Below are positions 21,001 to 27,000 of a DNA stretch of 64,000 nucleotides, piece by piece. Each line of letters starts with the position of its first letter. Within the stretch, counting starts at the first letter, position 1. Source of the DNA: Candidatus Hydrogenedentota bacterium. Lineage in GTDB: Bacteria > Hydrogenedentota > Hydrogenedentia > Hydrogenedentales > SLHB01. The position numbers were made by a program. The stretch is from positions 1-64,000 of the forward strand of contig BTWA01000020.1 in NCBI GenBank assembly GCA_045863295.1, given 5' to 3'.

Positions 21001-24000
21001 CGTTATAGTCAGCTTGAATCTCATACCCTGAAGTCTACCTTAGCGACTTAGAACAGACAAATTGCCGCGGGCATCCTTTGGCCCGCCGGAACGCGTGAAC
21101 GCGGCTTGATCGTGATTTCGCCACGCATTCACACTACAATCATTTGAGGGAGGTGCCTGTGATGTCTTTGGTCCCCACGCCCATGCAATTTGCCTTTACG
21201 GCAGCCTTGTTTTTTACTTCCGGGTTCTACGCAACCGCCGCGCCGCCAACCCCTGCCTCCATAACGTTTCACAACCCCACGCGAGACCACCGGTTCTATC
21301 ACGCCGCTGTGAATCTGGCGCCCAGCAATCGCGCCTATACGGTCGAGACCGTCGAGGTCAACAATTACCCTGAAGTTTTCGTCGCCCTCGTGGATGGCGC
21401 CATTACGCAATACAATGGCACGCGCGTTGAACGCACCTGGAATGGCCGCATTCCCGAAGGCAAGCCCGCCACATTCATAGTGCGTTGCCCGTGGACAAAC
21501 GGCCAGAATATCGAAGTCGTGCTGCACGGCGCAGATCAGGAAACGAAAGATTCGTTCGAGTGCACCGTGCAAGGCGTCGCCCCCAACGAAGGCGGCTTTC
21601 CATTTCCCGGCTGGAAAGAACATCGCATCCTTTGTTTGGTCGAGACCTACGGCATTCCGCGGGAAAATGAGCCGTACCTGTTTTTCCTGTCCGATGAAGC
21701 ATCGCGCGTGAAATCATGGGAAAGAGAGCTTCGCATCGCGTTGTTCGACCCCGACTCCGGACGCGCCACCGAAATCCCCAGCCAGGTGCTCTACGAAAAA
21801 CGCCGCTTCGACACGCCCATGGAAGAAAAAGCGTATAGCACCTGCCAGGCGGCATTCCTGGCGAATGTGCCTTCCAATTCGGGCACGTGCTATCTGATCG
21901 CCTACGGCAATCCGGACGCGCCGGCAACGCAATACGAGACCGACCTGAAAGTACGTGGCGCAAGCGGCACCCCCCAGGAAACCAACTTTGGCGAGGTTGT
22001 GATCGACAACGCCTTCTACGAGATCCAACTCCACCATGCCAGCGGCCAACTCAACGGATTCACGTCCAAACAATTCGGCACAGGCACGAACCGCAAATTC
22101 GGGTATATGCCGGACAGCGGCTATCCCCTCCACTACAACCCCGACGTATGGGTGCGCAACCGCTCTTGGACCCACACCAAAGGTTGGAATCCGCCGCCCA
22201 AGATGCGCGTCGAAACCGGCCCCGTCGCCGTGGTCGTCCGCCGTTGGGGACACCTGCCCCGCGCCACGGAGATCGAAGTCGAAGTGGTCTACCACTTTTT
22301 CAGCAATACGCCCTATGTCCTCGTCGAATCCACCATGGACGTGATGCAGGATGTCGTCGTAAACGCCCTGCGCAACGAAGAAGTCGTCTTCTCGCCGTCC
22401 ACGGAGGTCGATCACGCCGGCTGGATGCGCACCACAGGCGAAATCGGGTACAAACCCGTCGTGCAGGAAGAAGGCCTCACCCCCGGCATGATCCAAATCC
22501 TTGAAGCCGACGCCCCCTTCGTATGCCTCACGCGCGAAACCGACGGACTCGGCATGGCCAGTATCCGACTCAGCCAGCACGCCGGCAGCCGTGGCGACCA
22601 ATCACCCGTCGTCGCCAACACCATGACCGTCCTCGCCGACTATGGCTGGGACTTCCGCTACTGGAGCCGATCCCTCATCTACCCCTGGGGCGATTTTCAC
22701 GAAGACCGCCCCACCATCGCCAATGCAGGCACCTACTACGGCGAACGCAGCGCGTATTGCCTGTTCCCGCTGGGCGAAGGCGAAGCACCCGAAGCCCGCT
22801 TGAAGTATCTCGCGGACTTGCACAACCGGTTCACGCACCCGCTACGGATCGACCACCAAGGCGCGGGACCGTGGTAGCGCAACAACATGCAAGACCGAAT
22901 TTGGACTGCGGCAGCCGCGACGCCGCTTTAGTACGATTCGCACATGGCAGCGGAAACGAAACTGTAACCCTGCGTATGCAAATCAGACTTACGATCAACA
23001 GGCAAATGAAACCAATCGGTAGACTTCAGATACCAAAGCTCCGTCTCGGCCGTCGCACTCCAAGATAGGCCAATTCGTATCAACCAACGCATGCATCGTT
23101 TTCCGGCCTGAAAGGCCAAAACATGATAGCCCAGGGCAACGCCCTGGGTTAACGAAAACTCATCCCCCCAATACGCCCTGTAAGGGCAAAACAAAAAGTA
23201 TCAATCCCACACCGTGGCCTCGTCATATTTCATGCGATACCGTTTCAAAAATAACCTAAACTCATCTTGGAACGACAACTTGCGATGATGCTCTTCCTGC
23301 CCTTCGATGTATGCCCGAACACGTGCCACCTGTGACTGGCCAATCGAAAACGCACCGTATCCGTTCTGCCAATGAAAACAGTCAAGGCGGCTGTCCTGCG
23401 TCTTTATCCATTTGGACGATCCCTTTTTCAATGCCTCAACCACATCGCATAAAGCGCAATTTTTTGACAGGACGAACAGGGTATGAACATGGTCCAACGC
23501 GCCCCCAATAACGATGGCCGGACAATCCAGTTTCTGAAGAATTCCTGCTTGATAGGCAAACAGTTTTGGACGTAAGAGAGCGGACAAACTCGCATCACGA
23601 TTCTTTGTGCTGTAAATGAGGTGGATAAGATTCATCGCCAACGATTGCGCCATGATTTCGAACCCTTGTTTCGCCCTTACAGGGCTGAGAAAACGTTACG
23701 TTCCAGTCTACCCAGGGCGTTGCCCTGGGCTATCATGTTTGGGCCCTCCGGGCCGCGACGATACTTCCCGCAAAGTGCGCAGAATGACCTTAAGAACACC
23801 GTCCATTTAGGCGTTAAATCGTTTAGGTGACCGCGTTTCACAAGAATCACAACGCTCTGCCGCCCGCGATCAACGGCCGTCGGGTCTGCAAGGCCGAAGC
23901 GTAAACGCAAACCGTCACCTAGGTATACGATCTAAGGCCACGATGGGCACGTTTCGCAAAGTCCAACCACCCTGCGCCTCCGTGGCCAAAGGCTTTCCGG

Positions 24001-27000
24001 CCTGAAAGGCCAAAACAGGATAGCCCAGGGCAACGCCCTGGGGTACCAACCACACATCTAGTCCCCATTCGCCCAGTAAGGGCAATACATTTCCCGTCAT
24101 CGCAACACCCATGCAAATGTCCAAAACCCCAAACCATTCGTGGCAACGCACACAGCCACGCGCAAGACCGGAATGACTACGAGATAGGAATCATCCAAAG
24201 CACTGGTGACTCTCGATCGAAATAACCAAAACATAACCGACCATAGGACAGCCAAGCCAACGCCAAAGATGATACCGTTTCCAACCGCATTAGCCCGCTG
24301 AGTCTCGGCCGCGAACCCCAAGACGATGCCAGAACCCGCGCTCACGGCAATCCACCTATATGGCGGAAACTTACGCACTCCAGATTTGCCGATGTTCATG
24401 CTATTAACCTTTTGAATCGATGCCAGCCATTTGCACTGTGCTCACTGTGCTCGACAAATCGTGATGTCTCCACAGTCAATTCGGCGCGCCGCATCACCAC
24501 CACTATCGGTCTCATTAGGTAGTCGTTTGCTCGCCGGTTCGAATCCATCTTTCACAAAAAGGAGTATGTACTCGTGCGGTTGATAGTTGCCGCGTTCAAC
24601 TTCTGCTACAGCATCTTCGATCATTGCTTCCGATCCGTTCCCGGTTGCTTTCACAGTAATGCACTCGCCATAACTAACATCAAATGTGAAATCGCCGTCG
24701 ACGCCGCTTTCTCCGAGCAGCCGGCTGGCAGGTTGTGTACCGTGGTCACTCTCCAAGTAAGTCAGCAACAACACATCCACCCCCGGCAGACCGTTGCCTT
24801 CCTCATCACACAAGTGTCCGAAAAGCTGGTACGATATTTGGTACGTTAGATAGACGTTATGGGATTCCGTGGAAGACGCCGTATTACGTGTCGCACAGCC
24901 CTGAGCAAGAATGACGAGCGCGACAACCGCAAAGGCCAATACGTGACGGCAAAGCCTCATGGCAATTACCTCCCTGTCGCCTCTAGACCCCGTACCTCGC
25001 GCCGAAGTTACCCGGACAATACCAAAATCCACTCCCTATTTGACCCTCCTGGCCCCCTTTCCGGTATACTCTTGAATCCGGAGGCCGTTGATTCCTCCGG
25101 ATGCTTTCAAAACCCAGGCATTCGAGGTGGAGTCTTCCCGTCCCATGGCCCAGTATTTTAACGAAACGTCCCGCACGTTCAGCGAATATCTGCTGATCCC
25201 CAATAAAACGACCAAAGACTGTATACCCCAGAACGTCAGCCTGCGGACGCCCCTGACCAAGCACAAGCCCGGCGATCCCCATCTACACCTGAACATCCCC
25301 TTTGCCTCCGCCATCATGCAGGCCGTCTCCGACGACACCATGGCGATCGCCCTGGCCCGCTGCGGCGGCATCTCGTTCGTATTCGGCTCCCAATCCATCG
25401 AATCCCAGGCGGAAATGGTACGCCGTGTGAAAAAATTCAAGGCGGGCTTCGTCACCAGCGACGCGAACCTCCGGGCCGACTCCACCATCGCCGACGTCGT
25501 CACGCTGCTGGAAACCGTGGGCCATTCCACCATGCCGGTGACCGAGGACGGCACGCCCAACGGCAAGCTGATGGGCATCCTCACCAGCCGCGACTACCGC
25601 CTGAACAAGTGCGACCCCGGCGACCCGGTAAGCAAGTTCATGACCCCCTTCTCCAAGCTTGTCTACGGCGAGGAAGGCATCTCGCTCAGCGACGCCAACG
25701 AGCAGATCTGGGATCACAAGCTCAACTGCCTGCCCATCATCGACAAAAAGCAGCGCCTTGTTGCGCTCGTCTTCCGCAAAGACTACGACGACCACAAAGA
25801 AAATCCAGACGAACTGGTGGACGATCACAAGCAACTGGTCGTGGGCGCGGGCATCAATTCGCGCGACTTCCAGGAACGCGTGCCCGCGCTGATCGAAGCC
25901 GGCGCTGACATCCTGTGCGTGGATTCGTCCGACGGATTTTCCGAATGGCAATACGACACCATTCGCAACATCAAGAGACAATTCGGCGATCAGGTCAAAG
26001 TCGGCGGCGGCAATGTGGTTGAAGAAGAAGGCTTTCGCTACCTCGTGGAAGCCGGTGCGGACTTCGTAAAGGTCGGTATCGGCCCCGCCTCGATCTGCAT
26101 CACGCGCGAACAAAAAGGCATCGGCCGCGGTCAGGCCACTTCCCTGATCGACGTGGCGCGCGCGCGCGACAAGTACATGAAGGAAACGGGCGTCTACGTG
26201 CCGCTATGTTCCGACGGCGGCATCGTGATGGACTACCACGTGGTCCTCGCCCTCGCCATGGGCGCCGACTTCGTCATGCAGGGCCGCTATTTCGCACGGT
26301 TCGATGAAGCCCCCGGCCGCCGCATCCGCATTCGCGGCAGCTACATGAAAGAATACTGGGGCGAAGGGTCCGATCGCGCGCGCAACTGGCAACGCTATGA
26401 TATGGGCGGAAAGACCGGTCTCACTTTCGAAGAAGGCGTCGACGCCTACGTGCCCTATGCCGGCCGCCTTAAGGACAACCTCGACCTCACCGTCAGCAAA
26501 ATAAAATCGACCATGTGCAACTGCGGCTCGCTCACCATCCGGCAATTGCATGAAACCGCCCGCATCACCGTCGTCTCCGCGACCAGCATCCGCGAAGGCG
26601 GCGCGCACGACGTGCTGCTCAAGGAAAGCGATTTCGCCACTGAGCCGTGACGGGATTTTGTTCAGGGGAGTCCGGTATGTCGATGATCCGTCTGCCAAAG
26701 GCCGCAAGGGCCGTTGCCGCCGCAATCCTTATCACCGTTTGCGGTGCATTCGCGCAAGATTTCCCCAAACCGGTTCACACCGGCATCCACGGACTCATAC
26801 CGCAAAGATTCGACACGTACGACGTCATTCTCGAACCCGACAAAAACGAACCCGAATGGTGGGCTGGCGCGCCGAGCGTTGTGCGCGGCGACGACGGTGT
26901 GTTCTGGCTGGCCGCGCGCATGCGCAGCCCGGATCAGCCCCGAGGCTTGCGCGGATACGAAATCCGAATCCTCCGCAGCGACGACGGCATCCACTTCACC

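Follow-up and report, generated by a model that had tools for sequence, protein, structure and literature searches.

The Acido-Lenti-1 RNA motif as part of a three-hairpin DNA repeat that brackets an IS200-like Y1 transposase gene in a probable REPtron-like cassette

Introduction

The Acido-Lenti-1 motif (RF01687) has been catalogued in Rfam since 2010 as an sRNA gene whose function is unknown; in the present analysis it forms the outer portion of a longer DNA repeat associated with a transposase gene. Its curation as an sRNA in Rfam is based on covariation (Weinberg 2010, PMC2864571). In many phyla it is annotated by pipelines as an sRNA gene, and its function is still given as unknown in two 2026 preprints. 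The repeat was analysed in a stretch of 64,000 nt from Candidatus Hydrogenedentota bacterium (contig BTWA01000020.1, hereafter ‘the window’), in the whole of this genome, in 135 genomes of its phylum and in other phyla.

The locus is probably a REPtron-like cassette, in which single-stranded DNA (ssDNA) hairpin repeats are combined with an IS200-like enzyme. The gene of a 150-aa HUH/Y1 endonuclease–ligase is tightly bracketed by two inverted DNA units of ~95 nt, most likely the ssDNA recognition and cleavage substrates of the enzyme. Comparable to REP/REPIN or MITEs, the dispersed solo units and the head-to-head doublets without a gene would be non-autonomous and would owe their formation or maintenance to the enzyme acting in trans. 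The enzyme would bind and cleave the units, which would be mobile and would act as DNA rather than as RNA. If so, an Rfam family would gain a function and a whole HUH/Y1 subclass described as lacking a DNA partner would gain one, while the REP/RAYT principle would reach beyond Proteobacteria-type REPs to another enzyme class and repeat architecture in at least ten phyla. A candidate substrate is now defined, a 95-nt unit with three hairpins, sufficient for a direct cleavage/strand-transfer assay.

The locus in the window

The features of the locus are listed in Table 1. The window was scanned with cmscan at E ≤ 10; each of the three RF01687 matches aligns with the full model (positions 1–46) and scores just under the Rfam gathering threshold (37 bits). 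For this reason, RF01687 is absent from a default scan of the window. The earlier note had described the motif as bracketing the gene, with the left copy on the minus strand and the right copy on the plus strand, and this layout is borne out both by the matches and by an independent repeat finder, which returned inverted arms at 23104–23149/23710–23755 (46 nt, 91% complementary) and at 23175–23194/23666–23685 (20 nt, 95% complementary). In the window sequence, the inner hairpins lie 13 nt from the stop codon and 19 nt from the start codon. Given this geometry, the mRNA strand always carries the downstream unit in the sense orientation of the Rfam model.

Table 1. Features of the transposase locus in the window
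Feature	Position	Strand	Outer small hairpin	Long middle hairpin	Inner small hairpin	Context and evidence
Left three-hairpin unit	23102..23199	-	23105-23117	23130-23148	23175-23187	Adjoins the stop codon of the gene; cmscan 36.7 bits; nhmmer E 4.7e-19; inverted repeats I1 and I3
RF01687 match in left unit	23104-23148	-				36.7 bits
HUH/Y1 ssDNA transposase gene	23201..23653	-				150 aa; ORF; Pfam Y1_Tnp E 1.3e-19
Right three-hairpin unit	23662..23755	+	23742-23754	23711-23729	23673-23685	Adjoins the start codon; cmscan 30.3 bits; nhmmer E 2.1e-19; inverted repeats I1 and I3
RF01687 match in right unit	23711-23755	+				30.3 bits
Third, solo three-hairpin unit	23997..24093	-	23999-24011	24024-24042	24071-24083	cmscan 35.4 bits; nhmmer E 3.6e-17; direct repeat D2 and inverted repeat I2
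RF01687 match in solo unit	23998-24042	-				35.4 bits

The solo unit lies 241 nt to the right of the right unit and is placed tail-to-tail with it; a search for transposase stubs detected no gene remnant on its inner side. Between 22800 and 24300, no terminator-like site was found against 2.2 expected, and no promoter excess was found at the locus.

Architecture and covariation of the repeat unit

The full repeat is a unit of ~95 nt, longer than the Rfam model, in which a small inner hairpin, a free-sequence spacer of ~25 nt, a long hairpin of 8 bp, a linker and a small outer hairpin follow one another; loops are mostly 3 nt in each of the three hairpins. RF01687 covers just the long middle and the outer hairpin, with the linker between them. 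The inner hairpin mirrors the outer one, the two small hairpins being direct repeats of each other (D1, repeat finder), and in the studied genome their 5′ flank reads TGTTTYG. Read by eye, the aligned units show neither GTAG nor GTGG at the foot of a hairpin, whichever of the three is considered.

Compensatory changes occur at 13 of the 18 pairs in alignment A2, and at all 18 (437 double-change cells) in alignment A3, which was fitted to the model. This covariation is almost purely Watson–Crick without G–T excess: G–T/T–G fill 17 of 2646 cells compared with 70 for A–C/C–A, and 14 compared with 27 once loop-closing pairs are left out. Judged from these alignments, the hairpin structure is under selection.

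The transposase

The key motifs of the protein are DHVH, WQ and YIEGQEEHH, completed by a conserved C-terminal tail (residues 128–150); residues H55, H57, W95, Q96, Y115, I116, Q119, H122 and H123 do not vary across 22 sequences (alignment A1). Its AF2 model (pLDDT 91) places Y115 in helix 106–117. In a Foldseek search, the top matches are the TnpA proteins of ISDra2 (2xma, E 3.7e-8) and IS608 (2vhg, E 8.8e-8), both in structures bound to hairpin DNA, and the TnpA-REP structure 4er8 ranks 30th. The best NCBIfam match is the IS200 model NF033573 (45.8 bits, below its cut-off of 55).

By its motifs only, the protein can be placed in TnpAY1 subclass 1.2 (class 1, IS200-like). Identity as a class 2 RAYT was considered and rejected, the tyrosine motif being YIEGQ and not Y---NP, and the REP_Tyr_transpos model NF047646 giving 19.4 bits against a cut-off of 80. 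Of the earlier proposal that the motif is the ‘REP’ of a RAYT/IS200-like transposase, the link between motif and transposase stands; RAYT and REP do not apply as family names, since the enzyme carries subclass 1.2 motifs and the repeat lacks GT[AG]G.

Copies in the studied genome

The second copy of the gene, at C2:131571-132017(-) on another contig, encodes a protein 69% identical to that of the window. It too is bracketed, left (-) and right (+), as had been noted: the left motif is matched by RF01687 at 30.5 bits, and the right one (C2:132029-132122) by nhmmer at E 3.2e-17, with no RF01687 match at E ≤ 0.05. The probability of four correctly oriented units in four gene flanks arising by chance is estimated here at ~1e-14 (25 units, 6.3 Mb).

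Throughout the genome, RF01687 gives 24 matches at E ≤ 1, 19 at E < 1e-3 and 9 over the cut-off, and a stricter phylum-wide run gives 17; the last two figures are those reported before. Three-hairpin units number 25 (nhmmer, E < 1e-3). The two inverted doublets already noticed on contigs C3 and C9 were found again by nhmmer, at C3:134486(-)/134585(+) and C9:60545(-)/60683(+). Spacers of solo units are unrelated within the genome and their hairpins nearly identical, a pattern that simple recent copying does not predict. A second repeat type, with 4–6 copies in this genome, flanks no detected gene.

Distribution across the phylum and beyond

Among 29 loci of the phylum, 22 have a unit at each end of the gene, 6 at one end and 1 at neither (nhmmer, E ≤ 0.1), in agreement with the arrangement first described in relatives; one of the one-sided loci is cut by a contig end and another gains its missing side through RF01687. 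The arrangement also extends to other phyla, as had been claimed. The three-hairpin model R1, built from 54 units that all come from the studied phylum, was applied to 80 loci of other phyla: 53 carry a unit on each side of the gene (left -, right +), 20 on a single side and 7 not at all; in the opposite orientation, the corresponding figures are 3, 13 and 64. When the left flank is compared with the reverse complement of the right flank without any model, z-scores are high in most loci. At nine loci of other Y1_Tnp genes, either class 2 RAYT-like or IS200-like (genomes G000, G087 and G117), no adjacent unit was found. RF01687 itself recognises only a minority of repeat lineages: it detects the repeat in 17 of the 40 loci scanned from other phyla (E ≤ 0.05). 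Homologues of the transposase are present in more than 10 phyla. Taken together, the data support a strong and general link between the Acido-Lenti-1 motif and the Y1 transposase gene.

The motif is found in 91 of the 135 genomes of the phylum, the same figure as before (77 with a match over the RF01687 cut-off), and the gene in 84 at E ≤ 1e-5, where the earlier count was 81. Both are present in 72 genomes, the gene only in 12, the motif only in 19 and neither in 32, a count that is a non-independent test because the genomes are related. Copy number in motif-positive genomes, with counts limited to a maximum of 41, does not differ significantly with the presence of the gene (median 13 with it versus 7 without, P = 0.10).

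Individual genomes illustrate the range. G128 (completeness 96%) carries more than 50 copies of the repeat and no Y1_Tnp match whatever. In G069, a closed relative, 79 matches include 24 gene-less head-to-head (-)(+) pairs, 137–220 nt apart, with 4 tail-to-tail and 3 direct pairings. In G126, whole units have been amplified recently, spacers included, the inner and outer hairpins are equal in sequence, and the most abundant repeat type flanks no detected gene. Features counted against the cassette include the persistence of the repeat where the gene is missing, as in the genomes having the motif without a homologue, the two repeat types, one in G126 and one in the studied genome, without a cognate gene, and the unrelated spacers of solo units. 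A search for filled versus empty sites in five congeners matched just other repeat copies, and no excision product was found.

Relation to known systems

TnpA of IS200/IS605 elements (IS608, ISDra2) binds subterminal ssDNA hairpins in a hairpin-plus-guide arrangement. The present enzyme resembles it in its HUH motif and single tyrosine, its Y---Q motif, its closest fold and the position of the tyrosine on a C-terminal helix, and the conserved 5′ flank of the small hairpins is, by analogy, reminiscent of such guides. Unlike these elements, the cassette ends in inverted copies of one unit rather than in asymmetric same-strand ends, no near-identical copies and no tnpB are found here, and the protein carries an additional conserved tail at its C terminus.

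REPtrons are exemplified in E. coli and Pseudomonas. According to Quentin 2018 (PMC6006769), they consist of a RAYT (TnpA-REP) gene, inverted REP flanks and dispersed REP/BIME/REPIN copies, a canonical REP having the tetranucleotide GT[AG]G 0–2 nt 5′ of the hairpin. The cassette shares with them a low-copy Y1/HUH gene with a hairpin repeat in inverted orientation at its two ends, dispersal of this repeat in mostly non-coding DNA, gene-less inverted doublets and gene copies of low identity. It differs in its Y---Q--HH enzyme (not Y---NP), in its ~95-nt three-hairpin unit and in repeat copies that number tens and not hundreds; since the canonical GT[AG]G foot is lacking, ‘REP’ names here a working mode and not a family.

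In Quentin, Siguier, Chandler and Fichant 2018 (PMC6006769), subclass 1.2 is characterized by DH[IV]H, WQ and Y---Q--HH motifs, a length of ~148 aa, a specific C-terminal domain, few copies per genome and low intragenomic identity, and is reported without REPs and terminal hairpins. The window protein fits this description in its motifs, its 150 aa, its conserved tail and its two copies at 69% identity. The flanking hairpin units, present in most loci in the studied phylum and in the others, contradict the reported lack of hairpins, a non-defining property of the subclass. The REP search of that study demanded GTAG/GTGG at a stem of 7–20 pairs, a tetranucleotide that the units described here do not have.

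Competing explanations

An ordinary IS200-like insertion sequence, in which the gene and both ends would move together and solo units and doublets would be decayed ends or MITE-like deletion remnants, is an unlikely account of the locus. It agrees with the apparent class 1 membership of the protein, its IS608/ISDra2-like fold and its best NCBIfam match, with some relatives reaching 8 matches per genome, with the position of many copies at contig ends, and with cross-phylum homologues that are 55–59% identical, above many within-phylum paralogues, which fits horizontal spread; on C2, moreover, a duplicated right unit with a 13-nt stub of the gene start was seen by eye. However, the only two gene copies of the studied genome are as divergent as stated, the inverted ends are not those of IS200/IS605, tblastn finds no gene stub beside the other solo units, and the doublets of G069 far exceed its genes, with 24 pairs for 2 transposase protein matches. 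An RNA role, as an sRNA or as a 3′- or 5′-end structure with a stabilising or regulatory effect on the transposase mRNA and on other transcripts, seems improbable given the symmetric inverted layout around a DNA-transposase gene, the common head-to-head doublets, the absence of G–U excess on the annotated strand, of terminator-like tails and of promoter excess, and a conserved unit that outruns the Rfam model with an inner hairpin mirroring the outer one; in its favour are the Rfam curation, the covarying stems and the constant sense orientation of the unit after the stop codon. There is, finally, very little likelihood that the repeats serve the host as structural or regulatory sites in its DNA (bound by nucleoid proteins or used in fork processing, for example) with the Y1 protein as a domesticated, non-moving partner. 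Near-identical hairpins with drifting spacers in solo units and large repeat populations without gene would suit such sites, and non-transposition roles have been suggested for non-IS subclasses (Quentin 2018, PMC6006769), but recent amplification of whole units in G126, the patchy phyletic distribution and the conservation of all catalytic residues speak against them.

Beside the REPtron-like cassette, it is conceivable, if somewhat doubtful, that each ~95-nt unit is a minimal IS200-type transposon by itself. Its two small hairpins, with guide-like 5′ flanks and in direct orientation, would correspond to the left and right ends of IS608, and the long middle hairpin, by folding, would place both within reach of a single enzyme dimer. 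On this view, the gene cassette would consist of a mirror-image pair of mini-elements, and tandem arrays would form when neighbouring units have a small hairpin in common. Three observations were counted in favour. Within a unit, the 8 nt preceding the inner hairpin on its 5′ side match those preceding the outer hairpin at 4.22 of 8 positions, compared with 2.87 in across-locus pairings (0 of 2000 shuffles reach the within-unit value) and 2.41 in a same-unit control that uses the 5′ flank of the middle hairpin. Four small-hairpin modules of the window form one direct-repeat family with a spacing of 70–72 nt (D1, repeat finder), and in G126 the small hairpins, identical to each other, are shared within arrays of 69-nt period.

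The repeat unit and its place beside the transposase gene

The Acido-Lenti-1 family (Rfam RF01687), listed as an sRNA, corresponds here to part of a longer DNA repeat that brackets the gene of a Y1/HUH transposase in inverted orientation. Aligning all genomic matches together with their flanks defined a unit of ~95 nt, longer than the RF01687 model. Going outwards from the gene, it comprises a small inner hairpin (stem of 4–5 bp, 3-nt loop), an unconserved spacer of ~25 nt, a long hairpin of 8 bp, a linker of 12 nt and a small outer hairpin; RF01687 represents only the long hairpin, the linker and the outer hairpin. 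Hairpin loops are mostly of 3 nt, and UNCG tetraloops of RNA type, considered for the small hairpins, were dropped because the register gives 3-nt loops.

The RF01687 sites in the window come from a permissive Rfam scan, and since all three score below the gathering score of 37, a default scan reports none. A plain repeat finder run on the window returned 46-nt inverted arms around the gene (91% complementary) and, nearer to it, a second inverted pair of 20 nt (95% complementary); the inner hairpins are separated from the stop codon by 13 nt and from the start codon by 19 nt. Only two gene copies, 69% identical, were found in the genome by tblastn. The second, on contig C2, is likewise bracketed by units, with a left motif of 30.5 bits and a right motif on which RF01687 is silent at E<=0.05 and nhmmer positive. 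The bracketing of both copies by inverted motifs, claimed in the earlier note, holds, on C20 by the Rfam scan and the repeat finder and on C2 by RF01687 on the left and nhmmer on the right.

Features of the transposase locus and of related repeats (L numbers are extracted loci with their own coordinates)
Feature	Contig position	Strand	Locus coordinates	Remarks
Transposase ORF	C20:23201-23653	-		150 aa; Pfam Y1_Tnp E 1.3e-19
RF01687 site left of gene	C20:23104-23148	-		36.7 bits, whole model covered
RF01687 site right of gene	C20:23711-23755	+		30.3 bits, whole model covered
Third RF01687 site	C20:23998-24042	-		35.4 bits, whole model covered
Head-to-head doublet, second repeat type	C3:134486-134673		L032:982-1182	
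Head-to-head doublet	C9:60545-60784			
Second repeat type	C9:131497-131591			
Second repeat type	C22:88303-88396			
Right unit of second gene copy with outside flank	C2:132029-132228		L034:2030-2229	
Direct duplicate of the preceding segment	C2:131107-131297		L034:1108-1298	920 nt upstream
Degenerate unit between the two	C2:131333-131421			
Non-coding repeat beside solo unit	C29:4859-5730		L031:1360-2230	~870 nt
Class 2 RAYT-like Y1 gene			L145:1824-2435	
Class 2 RAYT-like Y1 gene			L146:1278-1979	
Class 2 RAYT-like Y1 gene			L143:1567-2043	
Tandem array in relative G106			L004:2025-2401	6.9 copies of 54 nt

The third site in the window belongs to a solo unit of opposite orientation, 241 nt (23756-23996) beyond the right unit. 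A relative's locus, L016, has a matching layout (right unit, ~220 nt, then a minus-strand unit), which hints that this tail-to-tail arrangement is conserved or repeatedly formed. Public data show the organism in sludge and bioreactor samples. Joints in fragmentary public contigs leading from 23148 to 23710 have sides of only 20–23 nt and look like repeat or assembly effects. In one public metagenome contig, the sequence from 23150 onward is joined to the opposite strand at 23710, with exactly 31 letters of the long hairpin in common; the gene could have flipped between its opposed units, or the joint could simply be an assembly artefact at word length 31, and the 31-letter overlap gives it the look of a repeat or assembly effect. 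The coverage of the single public RNA run is confined to 24757-24976 and is uninformative on the element's expression.

Association within the phylum and across phyla

Of the phylum's 135 genomes, 84 have the gene and 91 the motif; 72 genomes have both, 12 the gene only, 19 the motif only and 32 neither, a co-occurrence among related genomes for which a test is not independent. The same bracketing had been claimed for relatives and for other phyla, and both claims were borne out. Within the phylum, units flank the gene on both sides (left -, right +) at 22 of 29 relatives' loci, on one side at six and on neither at one (nhmmer E<=0.1), and this layout is independent of the gene's own strand.

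At least 591 relatives of the protein were found in a scan with one genome per species. The best of those listed, at 67% identity, is from a Hydrogenedentota MAG, probably of the window's own phylum; others belong to Planctomycetota, Verrucomicrobiota, Acidobacteriota, Bacteroidota, Ignavibacteria, Methylomirabilota, Binatia, Saccharimonadales, Armatimonadota, Kiritimatiellae and Victivallales. Of the first 40 cross-phylum loci, 17 match RF01687 (E<=0.05) and only six do so on both sides, one being a Blastocatellia locus that scores 43.8 bits both left and right of the gene. With a three-hairpin covariance model trained solely on 54 units of this phylum, 53 of 80 cross-phylum loci have units on both sides in the expected orientation (left -, right +), 20 on one side and seven on neither; for the opposite orientation the counts are 3, 13 and 64. 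In a folded sample of the cross-phylum flanks, the three hairpins recur with differing sequences, and Acido-Lenti-1 is therefore a single sequence lineage within a far wider repeat family.

As a check of specificity, nine loci of other Y1_Tnp genes, class 2 RAYT-like or IS200-like, in this genome and in genomes G087 and G117 were examined, and no adjacent unit was detected. Three Y1 genes of this genome are longer and class 2 RAYT-like (NHVH/NHLH, YIHNNP/YVHNNP); all three lack a neighbouring three-hairpin unit, and one is truncated with a degenerate HUH motif.

The searchable literature, which leaves most subscription journals outside its coverage, yielded no paper that connects Acido-Lenti-1 with a transposase, and two 2026 preprints still call its function unknown.

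Classification of the enzyme

A DHVH-type HUH motif, WQ and YIxxQxxHH are invariant in 22 aligned homologues, which also have a conserved C-terminal tail. By these motifs and the tail, the protein appears to match TnpAY1 subclass 1.2 as set out in Table 1 and related text of Quentin et al. 2018 (PMC6006769), where the subclass is reported as 'REP: no'. A stem of 7–20 pairs carrying GTAG or GTGG was a condition of the REP search described there, and the units here do not have this feature. Neither NCBIfam model reaches its cut-off (IS200, 45.8 bits against 55; REP transposase, 19.4 against 80). In a structure comparison with the AlphaFold model (pLDDT 91), ISDra2 and IS608 TnpA are closest, and E. 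coli TnpA-REP (4er8) is at rank 30. The system would therefore work like a REPtron but is no member of the RAYT class; nor is it a typical IS200 element. Of the 'RAYT/IS200-like' REP system proposed earlier, a REPtron-like working is the likely reading, while RAYT membership falls away.

Selection as DNA or as RNA

Compensatory changes affect 13 of 18 stem pairs within the phylum and all 18 across phyla, where an alignment fitted to the model counts 437 cells with double changes and has 96.7% of its cells paired. Hardly any wobble pairs occur, and the Rfam strand is not enriched in them: G-T/T-G occurs in 17 of 2646 cells versus 70 for A-C/C-A (14 versus 27 without the three loop-closing pairs). 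Terminator-like sites in 22800-24300 number 0 versus 2.2 expected from shuffles. The symmetric placement around a DNA-transposase gene, the head-to-head doublets and the lack of a terminator-like tail give a picture in which selection acts on the hairpins at the DNA level, or on both strands; transcription is also possible.

Signs of amplification and possible mobility

Searching the 6.3-Mb genome with an nhmmer unit profile gives 25 units at E<1e-3, 21 of them outside any stop-to-stop frame >150 aa. Two head-to-head doublets have the geometry of the gene flanks without the gene. Apart from the two real genes, tblastn of inner flanks found no remnant of the gene next to solo units. In the closed genome G069, 48 of 79 RF01687 matches form 24 head-to-head pairs, 137–220 nt apart, besides four tail-to-tail and three direct pairs; by eye, the 31 unpaired matches follow no two-block strand pattern of replication bias.

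Against a simple picture in which the enzyme moves the repeat stand the abundant repeat type of relative G126, which flanks none of the three detected genes, and genome G128, with >50 repeat copies and no Y1_Tnp match. The picture is also opposed by copy number, since the medians in motif-positive genomes (13 with the gene, 7 without, p 0.10) do not differ significantly, and by the solo units of this genome, whose near-identical hairpins enclose unrelated spacers. The many copies of the G126 type, whose spacer is conserved, are themselves a sign of amplification; the type is also present in tandem arrays of 69-nt period whose adjoining units have a small hairpin in common. A DNA search of five congeners for empty sites of two G126 loci matched only other repeat copies; the flanks are not conserved there, so an insertion boundary is not definable.

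A bolder reading concerns the unit itself. Its two small hairpins, inner and outer, have the appearance of equivalent binding modules that face the same way: in the window they fall into one direct-repeat family of the repeat finder, with 70–72-nt spacing, and their 5' flanks covary across lineages, agreeing at 4.22 of 8 positions within a unit, compared with 2.87 across loci and 2.41 in a same-unit control. Such paired hairpins with similar 5' flanks recall the left-end and right-end hairpins of IS608 with their guide sequences, and by that analogy a single enzyme dimer might act on each unit as on a minimal transposon.

Further repeats

The G106 array lies straight after a gene cassette's right unit; its building blocks, the linker and the outer small hairpin, alternate in orientation, a BIME-like clustering. 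The duplicated C2 segment takes in the second gene copy's right unit and ~110 nt of outside flank. At the start of the duplicate stands a 13-nt remnant of the first codons of the gene, their ATG changed to ATA. The second repeat type has identical inner and outer small hairpins, a different middle stem and no cognate gene copy here, and is the amplified family of G126.

The motif may be associated with group II introns; the repeat adjoining the solo unit on C29 is no obvious case of an intron. This non-coding repeat has internal 166-nt tandem copies and is found again on C37, C61, C59, C56, C69, C8 and C32. Its C32 copy and the truncated class 2 Y1 gene overlap at the 3' end of the latter, so the repeat may represent a second transposase-linked repeat family.
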